Program-made: the position numbers and the translations under genes
From: a virus
Lineage: Duplodnaviria; Caudoviricetes
Length of the DNA stretch: 64,000 nucleotides
Direction: 5' to 3' (one strand)
IMG/VR virus record: IMGVR_UViG_3300010167_000010
Coordinates: 32,001-96,000 of that record
In this document: positions 3,892-34,812 of the stretch, piece by piece
Layout: each line of letters opens with the position of its first letter
Position numbering within the stretch: the first letter of the stretch is position 1
The notes under the pieces: generated by a model
Told to the model about the DNA's origin: nothing
The model's database searches: none
What the model saw: only the letters and a program-made list of their open reading frames with translations

Positions 3892-3974
3892 GTGAACGTG
3901 CGCGAGTGGTTAAAGCGGCTTGATTGTGGATCAAGTGGAGAAATCCATCGGGAGTTCAAATCTCCTCGTTCACC
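3892..3974 (+). tRNA. tRNA-His(GTG) with long variable arm
   Basis: GTGAACG/CGTTCAC, CTTGA-TTGTGGA-TCAAG, variable arm TGGA-GAAA-TCCA, C73. Confidence 0.85.
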
Positions 3975-3986
3975 TAACTAATTATT

Positions 3987-4349: not shown

Positions 4350-4662
4350 ATGTTTATTTTTAGTTTAATAGTTGCTATTCTTGTTATAGTAATTATTATA
4401 AAAATTTCATTTAGTATTGGTTATCAAAAAGGCCATGAAAATGGTTATATGGAAGCAGAATATCGTTTCAATAAAAAATCTACAACTTATGCAAATCCTT
4501 TAGATGAAGATTTAACTGGGTATATTTAACATGTCAGCATCTGGGCGAGTATGGGAGCAGAAAGCAAGGAGATAAGGCGATGAGCGGCTCGAGCGTGGTC
4601 GTCGTGAACGGGGCGGAACCGACCGCTGGCAAACCTATATTAGTTAATTTAACTAAATAAAT

Positions 4663-5298: not shown

Positions 5299-5312
5299 TA
5301 AGAAGTTTTTAT

Positions 5313-5654
5313 ATGAACAAAGGACCAATAGTTCAAAAGTTAGCTAAGCTTTTGATGTTATATCAAAATGCGGCGTCTACCCGTGGTGAAAAAGATGTAG
5401 CAATAATTAAAATAAAAAACTTATGTGAACAACATAAGTTAAAAATTGATGGAAATACTGTTATTGATTTAGAAGCTGTTAAAAAAGTAGAAACACAAAA
5501 AACAGCACCTATTTCACCAGTAGTAAAACAAACTATTTTAGGAGACCCATCAGCGTACAATAGATATGTATATTATAATGGACAAAAATATTATGGAAGG
5601 GTACCTAAACATATTTATGAAAAAGATAATGAAATTAGAAAAAGAAAATTTTGA
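5313..5654 (+). CDS. Hypothetical protein, DUF2786-like N-terminus
   Basis: KLAKLL..A....GEKDVA..K...L..QH pattern. Confidence 0.5.
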   Translation: MNKGPIVQKLAKLLMLYQNAASTRGEKDVAIIKIKNLCEQHKLKIDGNTVIDLEAVKKVETQKTAPISPVVKQTILGDPSAYNRYVYYNGQKYYGRVPKHIYEKDNEIRKRKF

Positions 5655-5681
5655 ACAATAACATTATTTTTCTTATATAAT
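5651..5681 (+). promoter_or_regulatory. Sigma70-like (early) promoter
   Basis: TTGAACA..TCTTATATAAT; recurs at 25167 and 54488. Confidence 0.6.
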
Positions 5682-5767
5682 TAATGTAAGGGAGTGGAAA
5701 CACACCTTTATAGAGTGAGTAAGGCAGAGCCGAGGCGGAGCAACTTAAATGTTGAACCCAAAACTCT

Positions 5768-5866
5768 AAAAGAAGTCTGTCAAAGAACTAGTGGTCAGAG
5801 CCGGATTGATACTAGTCAGGTAGGCAGCCGGGTACGGTAATATGGGTTCGATTCCCATCTTCTTTT
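5768..5866 (+). ncRNA. tRNA-like RNA with expanded interior
   Basis: AAAAGAAG/CTTCTTTT terminal stem, canonical T arm ATGGG-TTCGATT-CCCAT, internal ACTAGT/ACTAGT-closed helix. Confidence 0.5.
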
Positions 5867-5953
5867 ATTCGGAGTGAGTAAAGAGCGGCTTATTTACTAG
5901 TAGCCGGGACTCCGAGTTTTTGAAATTGATCTCCGAGGTTAGGAGTTCAAATT

Positions 5954-6181
5954 ATGTACAAGTATGGTAGAAAAATCGCAATAGAGAATTGCGCAAAAGG
6001 TATGATGACTGTCAAGACATTGGCAAATGCATTGTATTACATGGGTTATCGGTATTCTGATGACGAAGTAAAAGAATTAGTAAATAATTGCTTAGATGGT
6101 TCCGGAGACTTTGTGAGCTTGTCTGGAGCGGCAGTTAATATAATTAAAGATGGTCAGCTGTTTGGTTATGGAACTCACTAG
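5954..6181 (+). CDS. Hypothetical protein
   Basis: Strong RBS AGGAG upstream. Confidence 0.6.
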   Translation: MYKYGRKIAIENCAKGMMTVKTLANALYYMGYRYSDDEVKELVNNCLDGSGDFVSLSGAAVNIIKDGQLFGYGTH

Positions 6182-6184
6182 TGG

Positions 6185-6517
6185 AGTATACTGCCGGCAA
6201 ATCTGCATTCATCAAAATGTTGGTCAAAAGTATTAAGTTACAGGACGGCCTTCATAGATAGTTGCCATAGCTTAGTCTGCGCGCTATCAAAAATAAATGG
6301 TGGCATAGTGGCCTTAAATGTCGTATGGCAGCCAAAATATTCCGTCACAGTCATAACGGATATAAAAAGACTGGTCGCCTAAAGGTTGCGACTAATAAGT
6401 GAACCAGTTAAATTGCACCGAGTCGACAGTGCCGAGGTTGGAATGCTCCGCGTTAATAAAAGCAAGTTGCAGGCGCCTGCACATTAAAATTATTAGACCT
6501 TACGTATAGCGTGAGGG
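6185..6517 (+). ncRNA. Putative tandem-pseudoknot structured RNA
   Basis: Up to five consecutive H-type pseudoknot pairings read by eye; raised GC; non-coding. Confidence 0.5.
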
Positions 6518-6588
6518 TTTGCAAGAATTGAAGTGCCGGGATCCGCGGATTATTAACTGGTAGAGGGTGCAACTCCCTCCTTGCAAAG
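6518..6588 (+). ncRNA. D-armless tRNA-like element
   Basis: TTTGCAAG/CTTGCAAA, T arm GAGGG-TGCAACT-CCCTC, GCCGG/CTGGT helix in place of an anticodon arm. Confidence 0.5.
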
Positions 6589-6601
6589 AGTTTTATTTTT
6601 A

Positions 6602-6674
6602 CAGAGTGTAGACCAAATAGATGGCCGCCTGTTTTGGAGACAGGAGATTGGAGATGCGAGCGCTCCCGCTCTGA
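6602..6674 (+). tRNA. tRNA-Pro(TGG)
   Basis: CAGAGTG/CGCTCTG, CCTGT-TTTGGAG-ACAGG; atypical T loop. Confidence 0.8.
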
Positions 6675-6682
6675 TTTATTTT

Positions 6683-6754
6683 GGCGCTATCGGCTAATGG
6701 TTAGGCCAGCAGGTTTTCAACCTACTAATCGGAGTTCGATTCTCCGTAGCGCTA
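6683..6754 (+). tRNA. tRNA-Glu(TTC)
   Basis: GGCGCTA/TAGCGCT, loop TTTTCAA, CGGAG-TTCGATT-CTCCG. Confidence 0.88.
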
Positions 6755-6850
6755 TTATACTATGTGTTTACCAACTATCAACGTTGGGCTGGAACAGTCG
6801 GAATACTAAATTAAATTGTTTATCCGATATGCCAGTGCATAGTATTTTAT

Positions 6851-6924
6851 TCCCTGGTAGCTCAGTTGGTATGAGCAACTGGCTGTTAACCAGTTGGTCC
6901 TAGGTTCAAGTCCTAGTCAGGGAG
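6851..6924 (+). tRNA. tRNA-Asn(GTT)
   Basis: TCCCTGG/TCAGGGA, ACTGG-CTGTTAA-CCAGT, GGTTCAAGTCC, G73. Confidence 0.93.
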
Positions 6925-7058
6925 AAACAAAATCCCACCGCCCCCGGGTTTTAGAAAAACAAGCGGAAAGGGTATTGCGGGTCGTTAAACCTTGACGACA
7001 ACAAGGACGCAAGTTAAACCGGACGATGCTAATGGCGGAGAGTCTTAGCGGGACGGAA

Positions 7059-7124
7059 TCTATATGGTGTAGGTAGCACATCGACCGCAATGTCGAAGGT
7101 TTGAGATCGGAACTCAATATAGAA
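7059..7124 (+). pseudogene. Degenerate cloverleaf with 6-nt anticodon loop
   Basis: TCTATA/TATAGA, GTGT/GCAC, TCGAC-CGCAAT-GTCGA, TTGAG/CTCAA. Confidence 0.5.
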
Positions 7125-7147
7125 AAATTTCAATGTTAGGATTTAGA

Positions 7148-7401
7148 CCACGATAGCTTGGCGATCAGATGGCGTACAAATGAGTCCATTCTGAGCAAGT
7201 AGCGACAATAACTAGATTCCGGCGAAATTCGACTGACCGTCGTATAAAGTCAAATGAGTAAACCTTGATTAATGGTGCTGAATAGCTACAGTGATTAATC
7301 CGTAAATGTTCACGTGACGAACTGAGTTTGGCGACAAGTCTTTGTAATATGTCGTGGGTATTTGGTACCATTTACCCTGCTTCCGGAGCAAAAAATGGTA
7401 C
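7148..7401 (+). ncRNA. Putative large structured RNA
   Basis: Long-range CCACGATA/TGTCGTGG helix, internal hairpins, 3' pseudoknot GGGTA/TACCC plus GTACCATT/AATGGTAC. Confidence 0.45.
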
Positions 7402-7406
7402 AATTT

Positions 7407-7482
7407 GCGCTACTGGTGTTAATAGTTTTGAGCATATCAGTCTTCCAAACTGGTGGGGAGAGTGCAAGTCTCTCGTAGCGCT
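7407..7482 (+). tRNA. tRNA-Gly(TCC)
   Basis: GCGCTAC/GTAGCGC, TCAGT-CTTCCAA-ACTGG, U73. Confidence 0.88.
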
Positions 7483-7601
7483 TAATACGGGAAACCGGGT
7501 GTTGTTGGTACGCTTCCAACGAACTAAATAAGTCTAGGAGTAGACAACTATTTTAGGGATTGGATCAGGATCTCGTGTTAAATCCGAGAAACCAACTTTA
7601 A

Positions 7602-7676
7602 GGGCTTGTAGCTCACAGTAGGTAGAGCGCGTGCTTTGCAAGCATGAGGTAGACCGTTCGATCCGGTTCAGGTCCA
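7602..7676 (+). tRNA. tRNA-Ala(TGC)
   Basis: GGGCTTG/CAGGTCC with G3:U70, CGTGC-TTTGCAA-GCATG, A73. Confidence 0.9.
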
Positions 7677-7695
7677 TTAGTTAATTTAAAAATAC

Positions 7696-7840
7696 GGGCA
7701 AGTAGCATATCGGCAAAGTTTGGGGGAGTGCAGGAGTGCACGCTGATCTCGTCCATTTGCTAAAATAGTCTTAATGCGCTCCTGTCAGCCATGTCGACAT
7801 TGGCGAGGTAGAGAACTTGGTGCAAACCCAAGCTGGTCCA
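7696..7840 (+). ncRNA. 145-nt tRNA-like RNA with Ala-type acceptor
   Basis: GGGCAAG/CTGGTCC-A (G3:U70, A73, one mismatch), T arm CTTGG-TGCAAAC-CCAAG, 11-bp internal helix GCAGGAGTGCA/TGCGCTCCTGT. Confidence 0.55.
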
Positions 7841-8027
7841 TTTTTAATTTATAAGAAGTAATTTACAGCTGGGAGCAGCCATATATCATCTAGTAAAATA
7901 TTACGTATTGGATAGCCGTATGATGAAAAAATGATATGGAATTACTGGTAAAACTTGCTATCTAAGGAAAGCATTTTACCGCAGAAGTGGTCGATATGTT
8001 ACTGCGAATTAAAAAACTAATCGATTG

Positions 8028-8099
8028 GGTTGTATAGTCTAGTGGTTAGGACGGGAGATTGTCAATCTCTTAGCGCGGGTTCAATTCCCGCTACGACCG
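8028..8099 (+). tRNA. tRNA-Asp(GTC)
   Basis: GGTTGTA/TACGACC, GGAGA-TTGTCAA-TCTCT, GCGGG-TTCAATT-CCCGC, G73. Confidence 0.92.
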
Positions 8100-8101
8100 A
8101 T

Positions 8102-8281
8102 AGTCGTGTAAACTGGAAATAGGAATGGGAAACACGACTTAAAATAATGGAACTGCCTTTCCAGTGCTGAAGGTTCCACCGTTCATGTTTGTTACCTCCC
8201 TTATAAAAACATGATACGGCATTCCGAGGTTTGGTGCCAAGCAACAAACTAGTAGGTGCAATGCAACTATGTATCGGAATG
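8102..8281 (+). ncRNA. Putative kissing-loop structured RNA
   Basis: Hairpins AGTCGTGT/ACACGACT and TGGAAC/GTTCCA have complementary loops ACTGGAAA/TTTCCAGT; two further hairpins follow. Confidence 0.5.
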
Positions 8282-8309
8282 GTTTCCAAATAAATAAAAA
8301 GGAAATTTT

Positions 8310-8525
8310 ATGAAAGATTTTTTAGAAACAATAGGAACAGCTTTTGCTTGCGCACTAATTCTTGTTATAGGTGTTCCTCTTATGATTGCACTTGCTATTA
8401 TTTGTATTGCAATATCACCGCTAATTTTAGCAGCTTATTTAATACAAGTTAAAATATTAGCTAAAAGTATTGATAAATTTACAAAAGTAATAAATAGTAA
8501 AATAGCCAGTAATAACAAGAGTTAG
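8310..8525 (+). CDS. Small membrane protein
   Basis: Long hydrophobic stretch; RBS AAGGA. Confidence 0.65.
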   Translation: MKDFLETIGTAFACALILVIGVPLMIALAIICIAISPLILAAYLIQVKILAKSIDKFTKVINSKIASNNKS

Positions 8526-8574
8526 CCCTTATCTCATAAGTAAGTGGAAGATGGAGCATTACCATCTATTGGCA
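8505..8574 (+). tRNA. Atypical tRNA(CAT) (Met or Ile2) overlapping the upstream ORF end
   Basis: GCCAGTA/TATTGGC, CTTAT-CTCATAA-GTAAG, GATGG-AGCATTA-CCATC; minimal D arm. Confidence 0.6.
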
Positions 8575-8579
8575 AACGA

Positions 8580-8649
8580 CGCAGGGAGAATGGGTATTCA
8601 AGTGAGTCTCATAAATTCACCTCTGCTGGTTCGACTCCAGCCCCTGTTA
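8580..8649 (+). tRNA. tRNA-Met(CAT), initiator-like
   Basis: CGCAGGG/CCCTGTT with 1:72 mismatch, TGAGT-CTCATAA-ATTCA, GCTGG-TTCGACT-CCAGC. Confidence 0.75.
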
Positions 8650-8650
8650 T

Positions 8651-8797
8651 ATGGAATGTAAACATAATTGGAAAGAAAAAGAAGAATATCCAAACAATGT
8701 AATTGAATGTACATTGTGTGGAGAAATTTGCAAATGTGAATATTTTATTGAAGTTGAACAAGACAATTTTGTATGTAGTGTTTGTGGGTTTAATTAA
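8651..8797 (+). CDS. Small Cys-rich zinc-ribbon protein, 48 aa
   Basis: CTLC, CKC, CSVC; stop abuts the next ATG. Confidence 0.55.
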   Translation: MECKHNWKEKEEYPNNVIECTLCGEICKCEYFIEVEQDNFVCSVCGFN

Positions 8798-9652
8798 ATG
8801 TTTGTAACTTTAAAAGATATGGAAGATATATATCGAAAATATACTGGAAATAGAAATTGTGTAATGGTAGAAATAACTCAAGAATGTAATTTTAATTGTC
8901 ATTTTTGTAATTATAATCATGAAGGAAAAGGAAAAATTTTAGATTTAAAATTATTTGAAGATTTCATGAGACCTTTAGAAGGTCAAGATATTGCAATAGT
9001 TTTATTTGGTGGAGAACCGACATTAGAAATGGAAATGTGTAAACAAACTATTGAAATGTGTAAAAAATATGGTTTTTTAACTTCAATGTTTTCTAATGGT
9101 TGGTGGGGGAAAAATGAAAAAGTACTAAAAGAAATAGAAGAAATAAATTTTGATTATATTTATATATCTACAGATAGACTTCATGCTGAATTTGTATCTG
9201 CAGATATTATAGAAAATATCTTTAGATATTTTGAACATAATCAAAATACTAGAATTTTAACTATTTCAGTATTTGATACTCAAGAAGGTGAAGCACAAAA
9301 TAAAGATTTAGATTTTTTACGGAATTTAAATTTTGATGGTGCAAAAATGGCTTTAGCATTAAATAATTATTTATTTGAAGAAGATATTCCACACGAATAT
9401 TGCATGACCGATGGTATATTATTTGAATATAATGGAATATTAAAACATTCTTGTCCATTAGGTGCACATGCTTGTACAATTGGACACGCAAGAGATTTAG
9501 ATGGTAAAGCAGTTTATAAAAATTTTATTAGACCTATAGAAAATAGACTAATGAAAAAATTATTAAATATTAATGATCATACTGAAATATCTAAAATAGA
9601 TTATGAGAAAGTAGATAAATTATTAAGACCAATTAATGCAGCATTGTGTTAA
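8798..9652 (+). CDS. Radical SAM protein
   Basis: CNFNCHFC (CxxxCxxC), GGEP, SNGWW motifs. Confidence 0.9.
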   Translation: MFVTLKDMEDIYRKYTGNRNCVMVEITQECNFNCHFCNYNHEGKGKILDLKLFEDFMRPLEGQDIAIVLFGGEPTLEMEMCKQTIEMCKKYGFLTSMFSNGWWGKNEKVLKEIEEINFDYIYISTDRLHAEFVSADIIENIFRYFEHNQNTRILTISVFDTQEGEAQNKDLDFLRNLNFDGAKMALALNNYLFEEDIPHEYCMTDGILFEYNGILKHSCPLGAHACTIGHARDLDGKAVYKNFIRPIENRLMKKLLNINDHTEISKIDYEKVDKLLRPINAALC

Positions 9653-9658
9653 TTATTA

Positions 9659-9730
9659 GCCCGGTTCGCTTAATGGATAAAGCCTGTGCCTTCTAAGCAC
9701 ATTCTGGGGGTTCGATTCCCTCACCGGGTA
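9659..9730 (+). tRNA. tRNA-Arg(TCT)
   Basis: GCCCGGT/ACCGGGT, TGTGC-CTTCTAA-GCACA, GGTTCGATTCC. Confidence 0.93.
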
Positions 9731-9899
9731 ACTTCTTTTCTGAGAAAAATGTCATTATTCTTTAAGCCTGGAGAGGTTGAATAATGAAGATATGCTTCGT
9801 GCATACTCAGTTTAATGAGGGATCACAAATGATAAAGAAGTAGTCAGTCGTGCCCTAGACGAAAAACAACGGAAAACCAGTGAGTGGTAAAAACCGTAT

Positions 9900-9971
9900 G
9901 ATTCTATAGTGTAATAGATAGCACTACAGTCTTCGAAACTGTAAGTAGGGGTGCAAATCCTCTTAGAATCA
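9900..9971 (+). tRNA. tRNA-Arg(TCG)
   Basis: GATTCTA/TAGAATC, ACAGT-CTTCGAA-ACTGT. Confidence 0.87.
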
Positions 9972-10070
9972 TTATGAGAGAAGAAACTAAACTAAAAGTA
10001 ATGTTAGTATTTTGGCCTTGGATAACTATTTATTATTTATTCAGAACTTTAGTACTTTTCATTAATAAGC

Positions 10071-10142
10071 AATCGCGTCGTTCAACGGATAGGACACAAC
10101 ACTGCGAATGTTGAAATGATGGTTCAATTCCATCCGTGATTA
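10071..10142 (+). tRNA. tRNA-Arg(GCG)
   Basis: AATCGCG/CGTGATT, CAACA-CTGCGAA-TGTTG, GATGG-TTCAATT-CCATC. Confidence 0.88.
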
Positions 10143-25229: not shown

Positions 25230-25526
25230 ATGAGAACGAAGAAACTTGTTAGAACAGTGAATAAAGGAAAACCAGTCGTGGAGTTCACATTGTGGCACTC
25301 CAATGAAAACGGTTATTGTCCTGTAGCTAATCGTGAGATTATTGGAATTATCAATGCTCGTTTCATAGTGAAGAAAGTTTTGAATATTACAGCGAAACAA
25401 GTAGAAATGGTAATCAATAAAATCCAAGAAGAGAAGAATTATATCGTTTTTGGAAAAGATATCGAGCCTTATTTCGAATCCAAAATCAAAAAACTTCCGA
25501 ATGTATTTTTCTTAGGAGCTAATTAA
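25230..25526 (+). CDS. Hypothetical early protein
   Basis: RBS AAGGAGGT. Confidence 0.7.
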   Translation: MRTKKLVRTVNKGKPVVEFTLWHSNENGYCPVANREIIGIINARFIVKKVLNITAKQVEMVINKIQEEKNYIVFGKDIEPYFESKIKKLPNVFFLGAN

Positions 25527-26962
25527 TGAATATTCAGTCTAAAATACCTTCCACTGCGAAGAAAATCTGTAATACCCTTCACAAAAAAGGTTTTGAGGCT
25601 TATATTTGTGGCGGAGCAATTAGAGATATAATTATTGGTCGCGAGCCTAAAGATTTCGATATTGTATCTAATGCAACCCCAGAAGATATAGAAAAACTTT
25701 TTCCGAAGACGCTTCCTATTGGAAAAGCATTTGGAATAATTACTGTTATTTATAATAATGAATCTTATGAAATTGCTCAGATGAGAATAGACGGAAATTA
25801 TTCTGACGGAAGACATCCTGATGATATTTTTATCACCCGAGATATTGAAAAAGATTTGGCAAGACGAGATTTTACAATGAATGCTATTGCGTGGTGCCCG
25901 TCAAGAGAAATAATAAGAGATCCGTATGCGGGTACTATGGATATAATGGATAAAGAAATTACTTTTGTTGGTGATGCTTTAATTCGTATTCAAGAAGATA
26001 AGCTGCGCATATTAAGAGCTTTTCGTTTTTCAAGTCAAATAGGTTTTAAAATTGCTGACAGTTCTTTAGAAGCTATTCAATTATGGATAAATGAAGGAAA
26101 TACTTTTGAAGGTGTTTCTCAAGAAAGAATTTCTGCAGAATTTAGCAAAATAGTAACTGGTAAAAATGCAATGGAAACAATTAAATTGATGGCAGAAATT
26201 GGATTACTTTGGATGATTATTCCTGAATTAAAAGATTTGTGTGAAGAACATAATAACGAATATCATACTGAGTTTATGAGGGACCTAAAAAATATTAGTA
26301 ATACTTCTATTTTGGTTCACGTATTATACGTAATAAAGTTTGCAACAGAACATCTCTTAAATAGGGGAGTAGAAACTGAAACAGAAAAATTGTTAATTAT
26401 GTTAGCAGCTTTATTTCATGATATTGGAAAACCTGTTTGTAGAGAAACAAAATCGAACGGAAAAAGTAGATATTTGAATCATGATACTATTGGTGCTGAA
26501 ATGACTTTTAATATTTTAACTCGTATGAAGTTTTCAAACGAGATTATTAAAGGTGTTACTAATTTAGTTAGAAGACATATGAATGCGCATGATATTCCTA
26601 AAATTAAAAAGGTTCATAAAATAAAGCGCATATTAGCTTCAGAGTATTTCGACTTGTTAATGATATTATCGTATTGTGATACTATGGGGACTGCTGGAAA
26701 TAATGGAGTACCTAACTTAAAGGATGCAGAAGCATTTCATAATTGTGTTTGTGATTATATATCTAAATATGGAAAGAAACTTCCTACTCCTTTGGTAACA
26801 GGTGATACTTTAATTCATCTTGGTTTTACTCCTGGTCCAGACTTTAAGGAAAGATTAGAGAAGACTTTCAATTATCAACTTAATGGTTGTGATTGTAAAA
26901 TCAAACTAATATCTTATGCAAAGGGGTTGATTCTAAAAAATCAATCTTGGGAAACACCTTAG
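25526..26962 (+). CDS. cca: CCA-adding tRNA nucleotidyltransferase with HD domain
   Basis: GGAIRD, DFDI, YSDGRHP loop, RRDFTMNA, ED.LR..RA.RF, ERI..E, HDIGK. Confidence 0.93.
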   Translation: MNIQSKIPSTAKKICNTLHKKGFEAYICGGAIRDIIIGREPKDFDIVSNATPEDIEKLFPKTLPIGKAFGIITVIYNNESYEIAQMRIDGNYSDGRHPDDIFITRDIEKDLARRDFTMNAIAWCPSREIIRDPYAGTMDIMDKEITFVGDALIRIQEDKLRILRAFRFSSQIGFKIADSSLEAIQLWINEGNTFEGVSQERISAEFSKIVTGKNAMETIKLMAEIGLLWMIIPELKDLCEEHNNEYHTEFMRDLKNISNTSILVHVLYVIKFATEHLLNRGVETETEKLLIMLAALFHDIGKPVCRETKSNGKSRYLNHDTIGAEMTFNILTRMKFSNEIIKGVTNLVRRHMNAHDIPKIKKVHKIKRILASEYFDLLMILSYCDTMGTAGNNGVPNLKDAEAFHNCVCDYISKYGKKLPTPLVTGDTLIHLGFTPGPDFKERLEKTFNYQLNGCDCKIKLISYAKGLILKNQSWETP

Positions 26963-26966
26963 ATTT

Positions 26967-26990
26967 AATCCCCCAGAAATGGGGGATTTC
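26967..26990 (+). terminator. Terminator hairpin
   Basis: AATCCCCC-AGAAAT-GGGGGATT. Confidence 0.65.
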
Positions 26991-27529: not shown

Positions 27530-27790
27530 ATGACAGATCATGAAAGATGGGAAGCATCATCAATAGATGCTTGTTTACGATTAAAAGAAGATTTAGGATT
27601 AAAGATTACTTCTGAACTGCAAGAATTGCTTTACGAGCATAAAAAAGGAATGTTTATTGCAGACTGTAGTGACGATTATTTTGGCAAAACTATTCCAGAA
27701 CAAGCCGCGCTCAAAAAGAAACTTCAAGATTATTTGCTTAATTTAGGTTTTACAAAAGAAAAAATAAACCAAACAATTAAATGGATATAA
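27530..27790 (+). CDS. Hypothetical protein
   Basis: RBS AAGGAG. Confidence 0.6.
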   Translation: MTDHERWEASSIDACLRLKEDLGLKITSELQELLYEHKKGMFIADCSDDYFGKTIPEQAALKKKLQDYLLNLGFTKEKINQTIKWI

Positions 27791-27853: not shown

Positions 27854-28867
27854 ATGAAAATAGGCGTTTTTATTGGGCGCTTCCAACCTGTTCACAATAT
27901 TCATTCTAAAATAATAAATTATTCTCTATCTAAATATGATAAAACTGTAATTATAATTGGAAGTTCTGAAGCTTCATTTTCTTTACGAAATCCTTTTAGT
28001 GATGATTTTAGAAAACATATGATTACTGGCTGTATTGAAGATAAAAGAGCTAGTACTTTTTCGATTAGATTTTTAAAAGATTCTAATTATAATTTTAATC
28101 AATGGTTAAAAGATGTTCATAATATTGTTGAAGATGAAAAATTAACAAAAAATGATGAAATATTTTTAATTGGTCATTATAAAGATTCTGGAAGTTATTG
28201 GTTAAATCATTTCCCGCAATGGAATTTAGATAAAATAGATTTTGAAGATAAATTAAGTAGTACACAAATAAGAGAAAATTTATTTAGTTGGTGTCCAACT
28301 GATTGGAAAGATTATGTTCCAGAGTCTACAATAAAAGTTATAAATGATTGGAAATCTTCTAGAAATGATTTATTTGAATTAGCTAAAAATGAACTTCAAT
28401 TTATTACCGATTATAAAAATAAATGGTCAAATGCACCATTTCCGCCAACATTTGTTACAGTAGATTCGATAGTATTATGTAAAGGCCATGTAGTAATAAT
28501 AAAACGTGGAAGAAACCCAGGCAAAGGTCAATATGCAATGCCTGGCGGTTTTATAAATCAAAATGAATCTTTAAAAGATGCAGCAATTAGAGAATTAAAA
28601 GAAGAAACTAAAATTGATGTTGCAAAACCTATTTTAGAAAATTCTTTGAAACAAGTTAAAGTATTCGATTATCCATATAGAGACCCGCGGGGTAGAATTA
28701 TTACTCATGTGCATCAATTTGAATTAAATTTAAAAGAACTTCCAAATATCAAAGCAGCTGATGATGCAAATGATGTTAAATGGATGTCTTTTGGAGATAT
28801 TGATTTAGGATATAGTCATTTTTATTCTGATCATTATCAAATTATAAAAAACATATTAGAGTTCTAA
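27854..28867 (+). CDS. nadM: Bifunctional NMN/NaMN adenylyltransferase - ADP-ribose Nudix hydrolase
   Basis: IGRFQPVHNIH, RNPF, SSTQIR; Nudix box GG.....ESLKDAAIRELKEET; RDPRGR. Confidence 0.93.
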   Translation: MKIGVFIGRFQPVHNIHSKIINYSLSKYDKTVIIIGSSEASFSLRNPFSDDFRKHMITGCIEDKRASTFSIRFLKDSNYNFNQWLKDVHNIVEDEKLTKNDEIFLIGHYKDSGSYWLNHFPQWNLDKIDFEDKLSSTQIRENLFSWCPTDWKDYVPESTIKVINDWKSSRNDLFELAKNELQFITDYKNKWSNAPFPPTFVTVDSIVLCKGHVVIIKRGRNPGKGQYAMPGGFINQNESLKDAAIRELKEETKIDVAKPILENSLKQVKVFDYPYRDPRGRIITHVHQFELNLKELPNIKAADDANDVKWMSFGDIDLGYSHFYSDHYQIIKNILEF

Positions 28868-28880
28868 GGAGGAACACGAA

Positions 28881-29552
28881 ATGAAAAAAATATTAATTGT
28901 AGTAGACCCACAAAATGATTTTGTGAAACCGAATGGAGCATTAGCGGTCCCTAATGCAGAAACAGTAATTCCTAACATAAATAAATTGTTAAACGCTAAA
29001 TTTGATTTTGTAATTATTTCACAAGATTGGCATCCAGCAGATCATATTTCTTTTGCTAGGACACATGGTGCTGAAGTATTTACTGAAAGAGATACTTTAC
29101 AAGGAGCTGGAAGTGCAGCAGGAATTAAAACTATCAGACAAGTGATGTGGCCGAACCATTGTGTTGCAAATACTTCAGGAGCTGAAATTCATTCAGGTAT
29201 TGATCAAAGTAAAGTTAATGCAATATTTAGAAAAGGAGCTGATAAATTTAGAGAATGTTATTCTTTATTTGAATATGTTTATGAACCTGGAACTACTGTT
29301 TTTGGAGATGAGTATTTAACACCGTTTTATAAAATAATTGCAGAAATGAAACCTATAGAAATTATAATTTGTGGTTATGCAACTGATTTTTGTTGTGCAC
29401 AAACTGCAATAGGGGCAAATAAAATTGCTTGCGCTACTTTAATAACAGATGCATGTGCTCCAGTTGATCCAGGAAATGTAGAAATGACTTATAAACGTTT
29501 ACAAGCTATAAACATTACATTAAAAACTACTGCTAAATATTTGGGAGAATAA
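28881..29552 (+). CDS. pncA: Nicotinamidase
   Basis: VDPQNDF, QDWHPADHISF, WPNHCV, RKG, GYATDFC. Confidence 0.93.
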   Translation: MKKILIVVDPQNDFVKPNGALAVPNAETVIPNINKLLNAKFDFVIISQDWHPADHISFARTHGAEVFTERDTLQGAGSAAGIKTIRQVMWPNHCVANTSGAEIHSGIDQSKVNAIFRKGADKFRECYSLFEYVYEPGTTVFGDEYLTPFYKIIAEMKPIEIIICGYATDFCCAQTAIGANKIACATLITDACAPVDPGNVEMTYKRLQAINITLKTTAKYLGE

Positions 29553-29553
29553 T

Positions 29554-30753
29554 ATGATTATAGAATCTTTACTTGATACTGATTTATATAAATTTAATAT
29601 GATGCGTATATTTATTGAGAAATTTTTTAATAGTTATGGTCGTTATGTATTTAAATGTAGAACACCAAATATAAAATTTACTCCAGAAATGTTTAAAGAT
29701 ATTGGAGAAGAATTACGACATGTTGCTACATTGCGATTTTCTCCTGAAGAAATAGATTATATAAAAAATATTCGTTATCATAGTACAGCATACGGATATC
29801 TTAATTTTCTAAAAATGTTTCAATTAGACATGAGTAATTTTAAAAAATTAGATTTACATGATGGTAAACTTGAGATAGAAGTTGAAGGACCAATATTTCA
29901 AGTAAGTATGTGGGAAACATTTGTATTAGCGATAGTACAAGAAACTTATTGGAAACATACTATTGGTGATGACGACGTTCCTGATAGAAATACTTTAATG
30001 CACGATGGTATAAATAAATTACTTGGAGATTTAGAAATTATGCATCATCATCCATTTTTATTAATCGAATTTGGGACTAGAAGAAGATTTAGCAAAGGTT
30101 ATCAAGAAGCAGTATTAAAAATTTTATTAAAACAAACACCAGAAGGATCTTTATTTGGTACTTCTAATGTAGAACTTGCTAAAAAATATCGCTTACGACC
30201 TTGCGGAACTATGGCACACGAATATATTTGTTTAGGCCAAGCACTTAAACATGTACCTATTGGAGAAAGTCAAACTTATATGCTGGATCAATGGTACGAT
30301 TTATATGGTGATAGTTTAGGAACTGCATTAAGTGATACTCTTGGTACAGATAAATTTTTAAAAGATTTTACTCCCCGATATGCTAAATTATATGATGGTG
30401 TTCGTCACGATTCTGGTGACCCTTTAACTTGGGGAAATAAAATTATTGAACATTATACAAGTATGGGAATTGATCATAAAACTAAAGTATTATTTTTTAG
30501 TGATAGTTTAACTCTAGAAAAAGCTTCTGAAATAAAAACTTACTTTAAAAAATTTCATGATCATTATAAAATAAGTTTTGGGATAGGGACAGCTTTAACT
30601 AATAATATCCCAGGAATAACTCCATTAAATCTAGTAATGAAACTAGTTGAAGCAAATGGAAGACCAGTAGCAAAAATTAGTGATGAATCTGGAAAAACGA
30701 TGTGTGAAGATGAAAAATATCTTGAATATTTGAGATATACTATAAATAATTAG
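29554..30753 (+). CDS. pncB: Nicotinate phosphoribosyltransferase
   Basis: SLLDTDLYKF, EFGTRRRFS, GTSNV, GTMAHE, GVRHDSGDP, FSDSL, FGIGT, KISD. Confidence 0.95.
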   Translation: MIIESLLDTDLYKFNMMRIFIEKFFNSYGRYVFKCRTPNIKFTPEMFKDIGEELRHVATLRFSPEEIDYIKNIRYHSTAYGYLNFLKMFQLDMSNFKKLDLHDGKLEIEVEGPIFQVSMWETFVLAIVQETYWKHTIGDDDVPDRNTLMHDGINKLLGDLEIMHHHPFLLIEFGTRRRFSKGYQEAVLKILLKQTPEGSLFGTSNVELAKKYRLRPCGTMAHEYICLGQALKHVPIGESQTYMLDQWYDLYGDSLGTALSDTLGTDKFLKDFTPRYAKLYDGVRHDSGDPLTWGNKIIEHYTSMGIDHKTKVLFFSDSLTLEKASEIKTYFKKFHDHYKISFGIGTALTNNIPGITPLNLVMKLVEANGRPVAKISDESGKTMCEDEKYLEYLRYTINN

Positions 30754-30762
30754 GAGAATAAA

Positions 30763-31248
30763 ATGTATACTAGTTTAATTGACATTCTTTTATGGCTTAG
30801 TTTAGTAAAAGGAATTATTATTGCCTTTGGACTAACTTTTGGTTTTGGTTCAATTGTTTGGTGGGTTTATGCATATATGAGAAGCGATAATCATAAATCT
30901 TATAGAGCTCAAACAATAATGGGATTTGTTTTTCTATTTTTAATGATGTGTATGATTGCTGTAGGTTCATCATATTTTTTAAAACCAGAATGGCAAATAG
31001 CTAAAGCAGTTGCAAAGCAAGTTGATATTCATATTGTTGCTAACCCAGAATCTACATTTAGTCCAGACGTTTTAATTGGTCATGCTGATAAGGCAGTATT
31101 AGGAGTATTTACAATTATTCAAGATGCTCCAGCAAATATTCAAAAATTGATTGGCGGCCAATCGATGGCTGAAATTCAAGCTGAACGTGAAGCACGAGAA
31201 AGACAAGCTGAGTTCCAAGAATTTTTAAGATGGCGAGAACAGCAATGA
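30763..31248 (+). CDS. Membrane protein
   Basis: Two TM segments. Confidence 0.65.
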   Translation: MYTSLIDILLWLSLVKGIIIAFGLTFGFGSIVWWVYAYMRSDNHKSYRAQTIMGFVFLFLMMCMIAVGSSYFLKPEWQIAKAVAKQVDIHIVANPESTFSPDVLIGHADKAVLGVFTIIQDAPANIQKLIGGQSMAEIQAEREARERQAEFQEFLRWREQQ

Positions 31249-31291
31249 TTGGAATGTATATTTATGGTATTGGAATGATAGGATTAAGTAT

Positions 31292-31765
31292 ATGTCTGGT
31301 CTTTTATCTAAAACACTATTTGGAAAACCCATGAAAAAATATTTAGAAATTTATACAGATGGGGGTTGGTATGAACAAAAAAATAGAATTACCTGGGGAT
31401 TTATTATTGTAGATAATGATGTTATTCAATATACAGAAAATTCTCATGGATCAGGTGCACATAAAGCAGACGTGGAGCGGGCTGAAAGTGAAGCTATTAT
31501 ACAAGCATGTAAATATGTTGCTAAAAATCCCGGAAATTATCGTTTATATACCGATAGCAAAAGTGTAATAAATAAAATAGAAAATAAAGTCCCAAATGCA
31601 ACTAAAAACCCAAATATAAAAGGGATTCAAAAAATATTAAATAGTGTTAATAGTTCTTGGAATCCAGAATCATTAGTTATAGAATATAAAAGAAGACGAA
31701 GCGATATATTTTCTGAACATATAGATGATTTATGTAGAGCATGGAGCGGGGTAAATTTTAAATGA
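31292..31765 (+). CDS. rnhA: Ribonuclease HI-family protein
   Basis: IYTDGG, AESEA, YTDS, late DDL acidic residues; start may be MKKYL. Confidence 0.75.
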   Translation: MSGLLSKTLFGKPMKKYLEIYTDGGWYEQKNRITWGFIIVDNDVIQYTENSHGSGAHKADVERAESEAIIQACKYVAKNPGNYRLYTDSKSVINKIENKVPNATKNPNIKGIQKILNSVNSSWNPESLVIEYKRRRSDIFSEHIDDLCRAWSGVNFK

Positions 31766-32259
31766 ATGGGAAAATTATTAGTGTTTTTCCATGTTCAGGA
31801 AAAACACATACAGTAACAAAATATTATTTTGAACTTGATTGTGTAGATCATGATTTTTATGATTGGAAATATCGCTCCGTTCATCAGGAAAAAATTTGGT
31901 TAAAACATTACTTATCTAGAATGCATCAATTACAAAGAAAATTTAAATTTGTTTTTGTAAATGCTTTACCAGAAATTGTTAACGAATTACCAAAAGATTC
32001 GATAGTCATTTATCCTACAAAATCCTTAAAATCTGAATGGGTTGAAAGAGCAAAATCTCGTGGAGGTATTTCAGAATTTCCATTATTATTAGAAGAAAAA
32101 TGGAATAAATGGATTGATACTTGTATGAATTGGTATGGAAAAAAATATGTTTTAGAAAGTGGTCAATATCTTACAGATATAATTAAACAATTATATGGAG
32201 TAAAAGTTAATTTAAATTCAATGCCAGGAGAACGGGCATCAAAATTTGGATATGCTTAA
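31762..32259 (+). CDS. P-loop NTPase/kinase-like protein
   Basis: SVFPCSGKT Walker-A-like motif. Confidence 0.6.
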   Translation: MNGKIISVFPCSGKTHTVTKYYFELDCVDHDFYDWKYRSVHQEKIWLKHYLSRMHQLQRKFKFVFVNALPEIVNELPKDSIVIYPTKSLKSEWVERAKSRGGISEFPLLLEEKWNKWIDTCMNWYGKKYVLESGQYLTDIIKQLYGVKVNLNSMPGERASKFGYA

Positions 32260-32512
32260 AAGGAAGTTTATGAAAAGATTATTATTTTTATTATTCGTAT
32301 TTACGATAGGATCAATTATATTGATATCGTGTTTTGTTAGAATTGGAACAGGACCTAATTCTATGGGAGAAGCAGTTATAGTAAATTCAGAAGGTTTTCC
32401 AATTGGTACGACTAGAGCATATTATACAGATAATTTACGAGGAAGAATGGGGACTTATGTTTTAGTTGAGAAAATGCCAGATGGTACTTTTATTCTTTGG
32501 CAGCCTGAATAA
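32246..32512 (+). CDS. Small exported or lipoprotein-like protein
   Basis: MKRLLFLL..LISC signal-like segment. Confidence 0.5.
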   Translation: MDMLKRKFMKRLLFLLFVFTIGSIILISCFVRIGTGPNSMGEAVIVNSEGFPIGTTRAYYTDNLRGRMGTYVLVEKMPDGTFILWQPE

Positions 32513-32516
32513 TATT

Positions 32517-33260
32517 ATGTTTAATGCTAAAAAAATAAAACAAGAATTAATTCAATGGATCAAAAATTGGTTTGAACAAAACGGGCCACATAGTCCTGCT
32601 ATAATTGGAATATCTGGTGGAAAAGACAGTGCAATAGTTGCTGCACTTTGTGTAGAAGCTTTAGGAAAAGGACGAGTAATTGGAATATCTTTACCTCAAG
32701 ATTGTCATGAAGGAGAATCCACTGAAGACCCAGATGTTCAAAAGTTAGTGAAACATTTAGGAATATCTTGTTTTACTTATGATATTGGTGGAATATGTGG
32801 AAGTATTTTAGGTAATATTGGTGAAACATTTTATAAAGTGGCTAATTCACAAACGGTAGAAAATATCCCTCCAAGAGTACGAATGACTTATCTTTATGCA
32901 CTTGCATCTATGTGTGATGGGCGTGTTGCTAATTGTAGTAATTTATCTGAAGACGTAGTTGGCTATACTACAAAATGGGGAAGTAATACTGGAGATTTTG
33001 CACCTATAGCAGATTTAACTGTAACAGAAATTAAACTGATTGGAAAAGAATTACGATTACCTCGTAAAATTGTAGAAAAAATTCCACATGATGGTTTACA
33101 AAGTTTAAGTGATGAAGAAAGATTGGGAATTACTTATAAAGAAATTGACAAATGGTGTAGACATTTATGTAATGATGAAAAAATTGATAAAAAAATTGTA
33201 GAATTAAAAAAGAAAAACGCTCATAAATTTAAATCAATTCCAAGATACAATTTTAGTTAA
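32517..33260 (+). CDS. nadE: NH3-dependent NAD+ synthetase
   Basis: GISGGKDS, NI.PRVRM, NLSE..GY.TKWG, P.DGL..SDEE.LG; start set at ATG 32517. Confidence 0.93.
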   Translation: MFNAKKIKQELIQWIKNWFEQNGPHSPAIIGISGGKDSAIVAALCVEALGKGRVIGISLPQDCHEGESTEDPDVQKLVKHLGISCFTYDIGGICGSILGNIGETFYKVANSQTVENIPPRVRMTYLYALASMCDGRVANCSNLSEDVVGYTTKWGSNTGDFAPIADLTVTEIKLIGKELRLPRKIVEKIPHDGLQSLSDEERLGITYKEIDKWCRHLCNDEKIDKKIVELKKKNAHKFKSIPRYNFS

Positions 33261-33281: not shown

Positions 33282-33674
33282 ATGACTCAAAAACAATATG
33301 TACCAATAGAAAGTGAAGATTATATTACTGGATTAAAAGAAGATGAAAGTATTTTTACTGTAGAATTTATACAAGAAGAAACAGGAGGACCTATGTTCTC
33401 CAATAAAGAATTTATATTTAAGAAATTTTTGAATAACGATTTTCATATTGAAGGATTACAAAAAACAGAAAATTCTATTCTAGCAGAAATAAGAGATATT
33501 AAATTTCCTGATACACCAATTAGAACAGATATAAGTAGAGGATTTTTTAGAACAAAAGCTGATGCAGCTTATGAATTTACTAAAATGTTAAGAGTTTTAT
33601 ATGAAGCATCATTAAAAGAATTTCATGAAAAGTTTGGTCAATACGAAGAAGCTTTAGGTATTAAACGTAGTTAA
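33282..33674 (+). CDS. Hypothetical protein
   Basis: RBS GGAG; GTTAATATA motif upstream. Confidence 0.6.
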   Translation: MTQKQYVPIESEDYITGLKEDESIFTVEFIQEETGGPMFSNKEFIFKKFLNNDFHIEGLQKTENSILAEIRDIKFPDTPIRTDISRGFFRTKADAAYEFTKMLRVLYEASLKEFHEKFGQYEEALGIKRS

Positions 33675-33684: not shown

Positions 33685-34812
33685 ATGAATTATCAATACT
33701 TTGAGCTTTTAAAAAATAAATCTATTCACACAAAATGGAAAGCTTTAGATAGGGGCCAACACTTATCTTTTTTAAATGATAATTGTAATAAATATTATGC
33801 TCCCCTATTTTGTCATTTATTTGGTTCAAACATTAAAAAAATAATTCCTTCACACGTAAAAACTATTAAAGGAAATAAAACTATTTATGAAAATTATGTT
33901 TATGGTCATTTAATAGTAGGAAATAATCCAATAAGATTATCGACAAATTTAGATTTAAAAAATAATTCTATACAATTCCCAATAGAAGAATATTCTTATT
34001 TTAGCTATGGAAAATACTTATTTTTTACTTGCGGCGATTTATATTTAATAGTAAGTTGTAGTAAATTACAAGATTGTATAGAAAGTAAAACTATAATGAT
34101 AGAAAAGACAGCATTAAAAAATTATGAAATTTCTATTATAGATTTATTTAATAATAATATTATAGAAAATTTTGGTCTTTTAGATATAAATAATTTATCA
34201 GTAGAAAAAGACGATGGAACTTCTGCAGTTTTATCTAATACATTATCACAAACTTTCTTAAATACTAAATTAAGAGGTTGTTTAATTGGTCAAAAACCAA
34301 AATATATAGTAGCTAGAATAGAAAATTCTAATAGTGATTTATTTTTTGAATTATTCTTTTTTATGAATAGAAAAGATATTCGTAAAATGATATTTCGTAA
34401 TACAATTAAAAATATAAAAACCGATCAAGGTATTGGTTTAATTATTAAATATCATACTAATAATATTTTATCTGAAATACAAGAAATTAGACAGTCTAGT
34501 TTAATTAAAACTGGGAAAAACTTTTCTTATGCAATATTAAATTATAATAAAGTAAATAATATACATAAAATTAAACAATATTGTCAAAAATATTTACTTG
34601 CTAAACCGCCTGAAAAAGAATATTGTTTACATTGGGCTGTCAAAAAATCTATATATTGTAATAGCAAAGAAGAATACAACTATTATAAACAATTATTTAT
34701 TAGTTGTAATGGAAAGAAAAATAAATATACAGAAGAAGATATATACTTTTTTAAAGATTGTTTTAGTTATAAAAAATATATTTCTAAAAGTTCTGATCAC
34801 TTTTACAAATGA
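33685..34812 (+). CDS. Hypothetical protein
   Basis: 375-aa ORF, no recognised motif. Confidence 0.55.
   Translation: MNYQYFELLKNKSIHTKWKALDRGQHLSFLNDNCNKYYAPLFCHLFGSNIKKIIPSHVKTIKGNKTIYENYVYGHLIVGNNPIRLSTNLDLKNNSIQFPIEEYSYFSYGKYLFFTCGDLYLIVSCSKLQDCIESKTIMIEKTALKNYEISIIDLFNNNIIENFGLLDINNLSVEKDDGTSAVLSNTLSQTFLNTKLRGCLIGQKPKYIVARIENSNSDLFFELFFFMNRKDIRKMIFRNTIKNIKTDQGIGLIIKYHTNNILSEIQEIRQSSLIKTGKNFSYAILNYNKVNNIHKIKQYCQKYLLAKPPEKEYCLHWAVKKSIYCNSKEEYNYYKQLFISCNGKKNKYTEEDIYFFKDCFSYKKYISKSSDHFYK

Follow-up and report, generated by a model that had tools for sequence, protein, structure and literature searches.

A large phage carries four intact, clustered genes whose products would together convert nicotinamide to NAD+, and the same gene set recurs in other phages. 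We consider it probable (roughly 60%) that these genes make up a phage module for salvaging nicotinamide along the deamidating (Preiss-Handler) route, which would raise NAD+ and, by analogy with known systems, blunt NAD-depleting defences. The window analysed here, a stretch of 64,000 nucleotides, corresponds to G000:C1:32001-96000 of a virus record that is 329,018 bp long, carries terminal repeats (123-bp repeat) and has a CheckV completeness of 100%. On the + strand, the genes for a NadM-Nudix protein (27854..28867, 337 aa), PncA (28881..29552, 223 aa) and PncB (29554..30753, 399 aa) adjoin one another, and the gene for NadE (32517..33260, 247 aa) follows after four + strand ORFs, 1763 bases beyond PncB when its start is taken at 32517. 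The sequence-only reading had placed the first three genes side by side with nadE about 1.8 kb downstream; the ORFs indeed match the named families, the distance is 1.76 kb and NadE is of the ammonia type. None of the four enzymes is truncated, each retains its signature residues, and the G+C of the block (0.28-0.30) is the same as in the remainder of the window. The salvage genes are embedded in a nucleotide-metabolism block that also encodes a CCA-adding enzyme, thymidylate synthase and kinase, dCMP deaminase, NrdD and an IMPDH-family enzyme. A DNA-level search against GenBank phages returned only short 3% matches, and the closest PncB relative has 69% identity.

The catalytic activities are predicted from sequence. 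PncA, a putative nicotinamidase, would hydrolyse nicotinamide to nicotinate and NH3, and PncB, a predicted nicotinate phosphoribosyltransferase, would join nicotinate and PRPP to form NaMN. Next, NaMN would be adenylylated to NaAD by the NadM domain, and NadE would use NaAD and ammonia to form NAD+. The Nudix domain would split ADP-ribose into AMP and ribose-5-phosphate, which could be returned to PRPP solely via a host PRPP synthetase. It had been proposed that the route uses both products of NAD cleavage. This is overstated, as the return to PRPP depends on the host enzyme: no Prs-type Pfam domain was found at E<=1e-6 in the 373 genome ORFs scanned (of 376 with 70 aa or more; two of the other three are giant), and any recycling of ADP-ribose would therefore be indirect.

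The first two steps are assigned on several grounds. A nicotinamidase is recognized by an Asp-Lys-Cys triad, a cis-peptide G-x-A and a metal site of Asp and two His of the DWHPxxH type (PMC5531466). PncA has the triad (D9, K118, C171), the G-x-A ahead of the Cys (G165-Y166-A167) and the metal site (D49-W-H51-P-A-D-H55, i.e. DWHPADH at 49-55, together with H93). It matches Pfam Isochorismatase (8.8e-17) and, among solved structures, best the nicotinamidase 2wt9 (E 3.5e-29) and then 2h0r (5.8e-24), while scoring under the NCBIfam equivalog cut-off (NF008623, 120.9 bits vs 174). PncB contains the Pfam domains NAPRTase_N and NAPRTase, both full length, exceeds two NCBIfam cut-offs (TIGR01514, 412.6 vs 269.55; NF003704, 441 vs 379) and aligns with the solved PncB 3os4 over residues 2-395 (E 4.4e-77).

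The adenylyltransferase is harder to place. The NadM-Nudix protein combines an N-terminal NMN/NaMN adenylyltransferase domain (Pfam CTP_transf_like, 2.8e-10) with a C-terminal ADP-ribose pyrophosphatase domain (NUDIX, 2.6e-18); it aligns over its full length with the solved bifunctional 2qjo (E 1.2e-71, residues 3-334) and also matches 2qjt (E 1.2e-58, residues 3-336). Under the motif definitions that we assume, the nucleotidyltransferase motifs GxFxPxH/TxxH and SxTxxR are present as GRFQPVHNIH (8-17) and LSSTQIR (134-140), as is the Nudix box GGFINQNESLKDAAIRELKEETKI, with G232..E238..R246-E247..E250-E251. The best NCBIfam model, NF003786 (PRK05379), gives 317.1 bits against an equivalog cut-off of 397, which marks the protein as a divergent member, and relatives occur in 456 GenBank phage records at E<=1e-20. 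Among 80 IMG/VR phage NadM-Nudix loci, Nampt lies within 10 kb in 66 and PncB nearby in 4, and the two never occur together (0/80). The Nampt partner suggests that NadM serves NMN at those 66 loci. In a tree, most of the PncB-linked NadMs group in a single clade, which is nested among the Nampt-linked ones. Both the exclusive pairing and the clade are new here. No residue specific to the PncB-linked clade was found in the adenylyltransferase domain, the single discriminating column lying in the Nudix half, and hence there is no sign of retuning to NaMN. Nevertheless, we infer that this NadM may accept NaMN, as do the archaeal and Acinetobacter NadMs, which are bifunctional (NMN and NaMN) and partnered with NAD synthetase (PMC3376133).

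Even an NMN-specific NadM could leave the route complete, since NadE could first amidate NaMN to NMN, as reported for one bacterium (PMC3376133). In such an amidation-first order NadE would act as an NMN synthetase, an NMN-preferring NadM would then make NAD+, and PncA, PncB and NadE would in effect replace the Nampt of a NARP2-type pair. We regard this order as unlikely, even though it accords with the prevalence of Nampt as phage NadM partner and with the nested, visibly unchanged adenylyltransferase domain of the PncB-linked clade, and even though in the bacterial precedent NadM replaced NadD alongside a NadE homologue adapted as NMN synthetase (PMC3376133). In the 735-kb phage LR756501, PncA, PncB and NadE are clustered with PnuC and an adenylyltransferase of the NadR type, an arrangement that fits the same order. 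NadR-type adenylyltransferases are NMN-specific.

The evidence from NadE is divided. This single-domain protein of the ammonia-type NAD synthetase family matches Pfam NAD_synthase (3e-47) and TIGR00552 (157.9 vs a cut-off of 63.65), stays under the full-length equivalog cut-off (NF010587, 154 vs 255), carries the PP-loop SGGKDS (residues 33-38, counted in the 247-aa form) and lacks a glutaminase domain. Its reading frame extends back to a TTG at 32466, but the ATG at 32517, which directly follows the stop codon of the preceding ORF, is the likelier start and gives the 247-aa form. Among solved structures the best match is the archaeal-type 2e18 (1.6e-29) and the second-best is 3fiu (9.9e-27), which we take to be the NMN synthetase-type NadE of the bacterium in which NadM replaced NadD. 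The second match favours amidation first. On the other side, the phage NadE differs from 3fiu at both of the alignable specificity positions (n=2), by a list of positions that we assume to be the relevant one. Furthermore, a tree groups it in one clade (SH-aLRT 98) with a NadD-linked phage NadE and with cellular NadE from a Treponema MAG, Clostridia and Bacteroidales, and not in a separate NadM-linked clade; this placement is suggestive of NaAD rather than NaMN as substrate. The archaeal-type best match also speaks against amidation first, as the short archaeal NadE that was assayed is an NAD synthetase without NMN synthetase activity (PMC3376133). The claim of a complete deamidating route holds insofar as all four enzymes are encoded, intact and in a cluster, and could plausibly take nicotinamide to NAD+ via nicotinate; in the order that we prefer, NaAD would be formed before amidation.

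A co-occurrence survey, suggested by the sequence-only reading, finds the gene set in other phages. All four functions occur together in four further large IMG/VR contigs (L024/L104, L026/L103, L030/L117 and L177) and are clustered in two GenBank phage records, so that the clustering is not due to chance. In L026/L103 they form a contiguous operon, NadM-PncA-NadE-PncB. Of 360 confirmed IMG/VR PncB loci, the best 80 yielded 47 that were unique and non-edge; of these 47, 32 have PncA within 10 kb, 28 have NadE and 21 have both. The adenylyltransferase slot of equivalent PncB-NadE clusters is filled by a NadD-type enzyme in L006, L050, L056 and L069 and by a NadM-type enzyme in L036, L043 and L052. 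NadD-type enzymes favour NaMN, and this interchange suggests that the slot handles NaMN. The complete set is not obligatory, as gene content varies among relatives: L028 has PncA-PncB but neither NadE nor NadM within 10 kb, and NadM is missing from the same range in L023. Such variation, together with the 11 of the 47 PncB loci (again from the best 80 of 360) that have PncA and NadE with an adenylyltransferase undetected nearby, would also be expected if the set were incomplete. NadM-Nudix would then serve only NMN, supplied by the host or made from imported nicotinamide riboside by a phage NadR, and PncA, PncB and NadE would feed a host NadD, making the deamidating route host-dependent. PnuC and NadR are encoded in the same genome, which adds to the case, but NadM-Nudix directly adjoins PncA-PncB here and shares one operon with PncA, NadE and PncB in L026, and we find a host-dependent set quite improbable.

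Similar clusters have been described. Li et al. 2024 (Microbiome, PMC11662467) describe Preiss-Handler 'NAD-jumbo phages' and report that 174 of 668 gut jumbo phages have complete salvage or Preiss-Handler pathways, with clusters in Fig. S7 such as nadD-nadE-pncB-pncA in Kuafu_71 and pncA-pncB-nadE-nadM in Zhurong_5. The phage studied here shares with them a genome of more than 200 kb (329,018 bp) and the clustered enzyme set, the four gene names being those of Zhurong_5, and thus has what defines their Preiss-Handler clusters: size above 200 kb, pncB, a NaMN/NMN adenylyltransferase and nadE in a cluster, pncA being optional. It differs in that it belongs to another lineage and that four unrelated ORFs part PncB from NadE. 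The proposal of a distinct route is therefore overstated, as the gene set had already been described; that study is purely bioinformatic and does not address NadM specificity or a defence test (PMC11662467). The bacterial NadM cycles, of the Acinetobacter and the NMN-synthetase type (PMC3376133), likewise have a NadM-family enzyme in place of NadD plus a NadE-family amidotransferase, but are cellular housekeeping pathways.

Among the phage anti-defence routes, NARP2 consists of Nampt and Nmnat of Vibrio phage KVP40 (Osterman et al., bioRxiv 10.1101/2024.02.11.579819). That neither NARP1 nor NARP2 deamidates is borne out by this preprint, in which nicotinic, deamid, PncA, NadE and Preiss have 0 occurrences. 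The present module resembles NARP2 in starting from nicotinamide, consuming PRPP and having the type of adenylyltransferase that phages normally pair with Nampt. It differs in that PncA, PncB and NadE replace Nampt, with nicotinate intermediates and a higher ATP cost. The KVP40 Nmnat presumably carries a Nudix fusion as well. No Nampt was found in the genome, its sole PF04095 match being PncB, which is PncB-type, and a phage Nampt query had 0 matches across the 80 PncB loci. NARP1 (Adps and Namat) is defined by a Prs-like ADPR pyrophosphokinase, and none was seen by Pfam in the 373 of 376 ORFs. NARP3, composed of a PnuC-like transporter and a NadR-like enzyme (Sci Adv 2026, PMC13464706), has a counterpart in this genome: PnuC and a NadR-like enzyme are encoded side by side at ~G000:C1 128.0-129.7 kb, beyond the window, scoring just under the NCBIfam cut-off for PnuC (41.9 vs 42.45) and under that for NadR (167 vs 201). 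The pair does not figure in the sequence-only reading. Unlike the salvage block, from which it is separate, a NARP3 route starts from imported nicotinamide riboside and involves no deamidation.

Co-expressed with the adjoining genes of nucleotide metabolism, the salvage module would sustain NAD+ levels in infected cells, and it may also blunt NAD-depleting defences by analogy with NARP2, which has a homologous Nmnat, and NARP3, both of which defeat NADase defences experimentally (bioRxiv 10.1101/2024.02.11.579819; PMC13464706). The anti-defence part is an inference by analogy only; our literature search found no paper putting a deamidating phage set to the test against such defences. A quite conceivable, if less than even, alternative is general auxiliary metabolism, in which the module and the PnuC-NadR pair raise NAD+ for a large phage in an anaerobic host, or complement weak host salvage, with no specific link to NADase immunity. 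The salvage genes do lie within a nucleotide-metabolism block, NAD+ also rises with NARP2 when no defence system is present (bioRxiv 10.1101/2024.02.11.579819), and Li et al. read such clusters as an independent NAD supply complementing host pathways (PMC11662467). However, the homologous NARP2 and NARP3 pairs overcome NADase defences in tests, and few NAD-consuming phage enzymes were recognized (an epimerase and the IMPDH-family protein); the two roles are not exclusive. No NAD ligase, SIR2 or ART was found by Pfam at E<=1e-6 in the 373 of 376 ORFs. The phage DNA ligase is ATP-dependent rather than NAD-dependent, which removes a classical phage demand for NAD and counts against the NAD-rebuilding module as such.

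More tentatively still, the set could be a fourth NAD+ reconstitution pathway that would be distinct experimentally, in which one clade of NARP2-type NadM-Nudix proteins took up a deamidating branch in exchange for Nampt, perhaps with NadE acting first as an NMN synthetase, and which with PnuC-NadR would give two ways round NADase immunity; we hold this to be doubtful. A genome with both the salvage set and a PnuC-NadR pair like the published NARP3 is a further novelty of this analysis and, if that proposal were true, would combine two independent bypasses of NADase immunity in one phage.

Of the four + strand ORFs between PncB and NadE, the first (30763..31248, 161 aa) has no assigned function: it had 0 NCBIfam and 0 PHROG matches and a sub-threshold Pfam match only, and its homologues are absent from the related loci searched, leaving membership in the pathway unsupported. 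The last (32246..32512, 88 aa), likewise unassigned, has its stop 4 bases ahead of the NadE ATG. An RNase H-like protein (31292..31765, 157 aa; Pfam RNase_H 2.2e-10, phrog_531 1.2e-15) is probably a passenger. The P-loop protein at 31762..32259 (165 aa; phrog_4182, 4.7e-27) is a conserved PncB neighbour in related phage contigs, with homologues adjoining PncB in L023, L026/L103 and L028, and its P-loop GKT is invariant. An AlphaFold model (pLDDT 81.9) resembles NMP kinases, the top Foldseek matches being archaeal adenylate kinases and AK6/Fap7-type kinases (TM 0.5-0.57). The family is broad, with 1754 representatives at E<=1e-3, and the protein is a possible accessory of the salvage set.

The four genes proposed by the sequence-only reading to encode a deamidating route from nicotinamide to NAD+ are all present in the window, on the plus strand. 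NadM-Nudix (27854-28867; Pfam CTP_transf_like and NUDIX), PncA (28881-29552; Isochorismatase) and PncB (29554-30753; NAPRTase_N and NAPRTase) are encoded by adjacent ORFs 1-14 bases apart, and the NadE ORF (32466-33260; NAD_synthase) follows 1763 bases (1.76 kb) downstream. This last ORF is opened by TTG; as the ATG at 32517 lies four bases past the upstream stop and fits the beginnings of homologues, NadE is read as a protein of 247 aa. PncB exceeds its curated NCBIfam cut-off (TIGR01514, 412.6 versus 269.55) and NadE the domain cut-off of TIGR00552 (157.9 versus 63.65); NadM-Nudix (317 versus 397) and PncA (120.9 versus 174) fall below their NCBIfam equivalog cut-offs and are clear yet divergent matches. 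Solved counterparts were found for all four: 2qjo (E 1.2e-71) and 2qjt for NadM-Nudix, in end-to-end alignments, the nicotinamidases 2wt9 and 2h0r for PncA, 3os4 (E 4.4e-77) for PncB, and 2e18 and 3fiu, both short single-domain enzymes, for NadE. By the definitions in PMC5531466, PncA has an intact nicotinamidase triad (D9, K118, C171), cis-peptide stretch (G-Y-A) and metal site (DWHPxxH plus a histidine); NadM retains GRFQPVHNIH, LSSTQIR and the Nudix box, and NadE retains the PP-loop SGGKDS. The gene block noted earlier is confirmed. The record is a 329,018-bp low-G+C jumbo phage genome (0.23-0.32 excluding the tRNA region) with direct terminal repeats (123 bp, exact), 100% complete by CheckV. 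Chance adjacency or contamination with host DNA is rejected on the basis of the phage-like G+C, the complete, terminally repeated record and the recurrence of the genes in other phages.

At the DNA level, the block gave only 3% matches, in 13 records, among 50,697 GenBank phages, and tblastn against the same collection found PncB in 13, PncA in 6, NadE in 42 and NadM-Nudix in 456 records. In the 735-kb phage LR756501, genes for PncB, NadE, a TonB-dependent receptor (L005:10478-12634), PnuC, a NadR-like protein and PncA lie within 8.5 kb; this receptor may serve in the uptake of a pyridine precursor. A gene row in the 117-kb faecal phage MT835470 runs from a PncA-like gene through PncB, NadE and an AAA protein to a NadD-type adenylyltransferase and a Nudix protein. 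Scanning IMG/VR with a single PncB protein gave nothing, and an alignment query was required, with which PncB relatives were found on 360 stretches. From the best 80 of these 360, 27 loci with PncB at the extreme contig end were dropped, because they resemble host genes at prophage borders, as were six exact duplicates; one retained representative, L057, is a short contig and undercounts its duplicates. Within 10 kb (phmmer E<=1e-5, with our own queries), the remaining 47 loci contain PncA in 32 cases, NadE in 28 and both in 21, and PncA, NadE and an adenylyltransferase-like gene together in 10. The full set of NadM-Nudix, PncA, PncB and NadE is found in 3/47, namely L026, where the four genes form a contiguous operon on a contig of 199 kb, L024 (300-kb contig) and L030 (153-kb contig); a fourth complete set, L177 (279 kb), was found via the NadM-Nudix loci. 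ORFs without a functional call flanking the block (27530-27790, 33282-33674 and 33685-34812) have homologues in matching positions in the loci L023 and L028, which are therefore syntenic relatives. Within 10 kb, L023 is without NadM and L028 without both NadM and NadE, so the full set is not obligatory.

The notion that such a route was undescribed is not borne out. Li et al. 2024 (Microbiome, PMC11662467) report complete salvage or Preiss-Handler pathways, frequently clustered, in 174 of 668 gut jumbo phages, and Fig. S7 of that paper depicts nadD-nadE-pncB-pncA in Kuafu_71 and pncA-pncB-nadE-nadM in Zhurong_5. The genomic observation repeats one already published in 2024, and the set in the window is a further example of the published kind. 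The earlier interpretation therefore stands for the presence of the enzymes and a plausible route, and falls for the novelty of that route (PMC11662467). Its statement that NARP1 and NARP2 do not deamidate agrees with the Osterman preprint (10.1101/2024.02.11.579819), which contains no mention of nicotinic, deamid, PncA, NadE or Preiss; the preprint does state that other NAD salvage genes also occur on phages. No paper testing a deamidating phage NAD route was found in our literature search, and a November 2026 review is limited in coverage to NARP1/2 and the aRES story.

Among the best 80 of 103 confirmed NadM-Nudix loci in IMG/VR, 66 have Nampt within 10 kb, 4 have PncB, 10 have neither and none has both; conversely, Nampt is found in 0/80 PncB loci (best 80 of 360). 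A quick maximum-likelihood tree, built from 68 distinct proteins and midpoint-rooted, places NadM-Nudix of the window with those of L103, L104 and L117, all PncB-linked (SH-aLRT 95), and does not resolve the placement of L177. The PncB label requires two changes on this tree versus a mean of 4.9 in shuffles, and 0/500 shuffles were as low; the tree does not give the direction of change because the L117 branch is long and the rooting is by midpoint. By the counts and the tree, a single lineage of the Nmnat common in phages is thus coupled to PncA, PncB and NadE in place of Nampt. A NadM-Nudix clade in which Nampt is swapped for a deamidating branch is a modest new twist, and no statement of such alternative coupling within one Nmnat lineage was found in the papers examined. 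If the module restores NAD+ in infected cells, it would demonstrate that the common phage NadM-Nudix can couple to either Nampt or PncA/PncB/NadE.

The scheme of the sequence-only reading needs NadM to accept NaMN. PMC3376133 reports that NadM enzymes use NMN effectively, that NadM of archaea and of Acinetobacter is bifunctional and works with NAD synthetase, that in one bacterium NadM is partnered by a NadE homologue acting as NMN synthetase, and that a short archaeal NadE, when tested, had NAD synthetase and no NMN synthetase activity. We favour the canonical order, in which NadM acts on NaMN and NadE on NaAD, with a probability of about 0.6. In equivalent clusters the adenylyltransferase is of the NadD type (L006, L050, L056, L069) or the NadM type (L036, L043, L052), and NadE of the window falls into a clade (SH-aLRT 98) with a NadD-linked phage NadE and cellular NadE from a Treponema MAG (50% identity to NadE of the window), Clostridia and Bacteroidales; NadM-linked NadEs form no separate clade in this tree. 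Amidation of NaMN by NadE as an NMN synthetase, followed by NadM, appears unlikely, although three observations speak for it. NMN is the substrate that phage NadM-Nudix normally serves, given its usual Nampt partner (66/80; best 80 of 103). In the adenylyltransferase domain, the PncB-linked clade, represented by four members, has no substitution that distinguishes it from 56 Nampt-linked proteins; the one column that sets it apart lies in the Nudix half. Finally, the second-best solved match of NadE is 3fiu. Judging from the predicted enzymes, the route would be closed by either order. The module also provides a natural test of NaMN acceptance by NadM-family enzymes or, alternatively, of a short NadE as NMN synthetase beyond the one bacterium known for it.

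Of 376 ORFs called in the genome (>=70 aa), 373 were scanned against Pfam, the scan omitting two giant ORFs that span locus borders and one small ORF in an already scanned stretch. Outside the window, at G000:C1 about 128,024-129,730 (L004:751-2457, L011:2024-3730), adjacent genes encode PnuC (NMN_transporter, 6e-18) and a NadR-like protein that scores 167 bits with NF005988 and contains an AAA_28 domain. NARP3, published in 2026, consists of this gene pair (Sci Adv 2026; PMC13464706), and the phage therefore has two separate NAD routes; the co-occurrence of the four-gene set with a NARP3-like pair is a modest new twist. One extra AAA_28 protein and one extra Nudix protein are also encoded. 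Nampt is absent from the genome, the single PF04095 match being PncB, and no Prs-like gene, SIR2 or NAD-dependent ligase was found with Pfam in 373/376 ORFs; the DNA ligase of the phage is of the ATP-dependent type. A third cytidylyltransferase-like ORF, of 196 aa (L003:1273-1863), was rejected as NadD, with TIGR00482 at just 22 bits (E 1.3e-4), no Pfam match at 1e-6 and no solved relative.

An anti-defence benefit of the module is plausible by analogy, because NARP2 (Osterman preprint, bioRxiv 10.1101/2024.02.11.579819) and NARP3 (PMC13464706) restore NAD+ and overcome Thoeris, DSR2 or SIR2-HerA. A general role in NAD supply has no less support, and the one does not exclude the other. Should NAD+ be restored during infection, a nicotinate-based branch would be added to the phage answers to NAD-depleting immunity (NARP1-3). 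ADP-ribose recycling would end at AMP and ribose-5-phosphate unless host PRPP synthetase acts.

The neighbours of the block are nucleotide-metabolism genes. A promoter scan gave no clear signal (90 sites versus 87.5 in shuffles), and of seven terminator-like hairpins (3.0 expected) only that at 26967-26988, upstream of the block, suggests a unit boundary. At 31762-32259 lies the gene for a 165-aa protein (phrog_4182) that has a P-loop and an NMP-kinase-like fold; its homologues adjoin PncB in L023, L026/L103 and L028. Another homologue, P0123, is from a contig of 4,491 bp, which is also the length of the contig carrying the closest PncB, P0002. Since the sharing loci are syntenic relatives, common descent rather than function may account for this linkage. 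The GKT P-loop is invariant, and the structural model (pLDDT 81.9) is similar to adenylate kinases of archaea and to kinases of the AK6/Fap7 type (TM 0.5-0.57, E about 1e-4); that the protein might be an AMP-recycling kinase is offered as an idea. Considered as a ribosylnicotinamide kinase, it showed no detectable relation to the NadR kinase domain, hhalign against the phage NadR and the extra AAA_28 protein aligning the P-loop alone (probabilities 0.7% and 6%). The family is large and unnamed (1754 representatives at E<=1e-3, 468 at E<=1e-10), 17 of 22 scanned relatives have no Pfam match, and the domains fused to distant relatives (DHHA1, GT8, HD) are uninformative on NAD.

The closest cellular NadE genes lie on gut Clostridia MAG contigs (L185, L191, L207, L209, L222, L237, L262), in operons encoding a PncA-like protein, a short Prs-like ribose-phosphate diphosphokinase, a 489-499-aa PRK09198-type phosphoribosyltransferase, NadE and NrtR. 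The Prs-like and Nampt-like pair resembles Adps and Namat of NARP1, here beside PncA and NadE, and through these operons bacteria may recycle ADP-ribose by a deamidating route. In the Lachnospiraceae MAG contig L222, the PncA/Prs-like/phosphoribosyltransferase/NadE operon has directly upstream of it a gene (L222:1325-3130) whose 601-aa product joins a HemN-like radical SAM domain to an NrtR/Nudix-like domain.

Elsewhere in the window, a CCA-adding enzyme is encoded at 25526-26962, and 12 tRNA genes are present, with a tRNA cluster (2969-10142) into which genes for a GIY-YIG homing endonuclease (4663-5298), a 74-aa fragment of alanyl-tRNA synthetase (3553-3777) and a radical SAM protein are interspersed; directly upstream of the window there is another GIY-YIG gene as well as an HNH gene. 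The load of motility and chemotaxis genes is unusual for a phage (ORFs at window 167-1381 and 1374-2771 and at G000:C1 306,492-307,346, 179,449-181,269 and 164,185-166,302). Their products are FliG and a FliM whose C-terminal domain is FliN, both of the flagellar C-ring, along with flagellin, a methyl-accepting chemotaxis protein and a hybrid histidine kinase.
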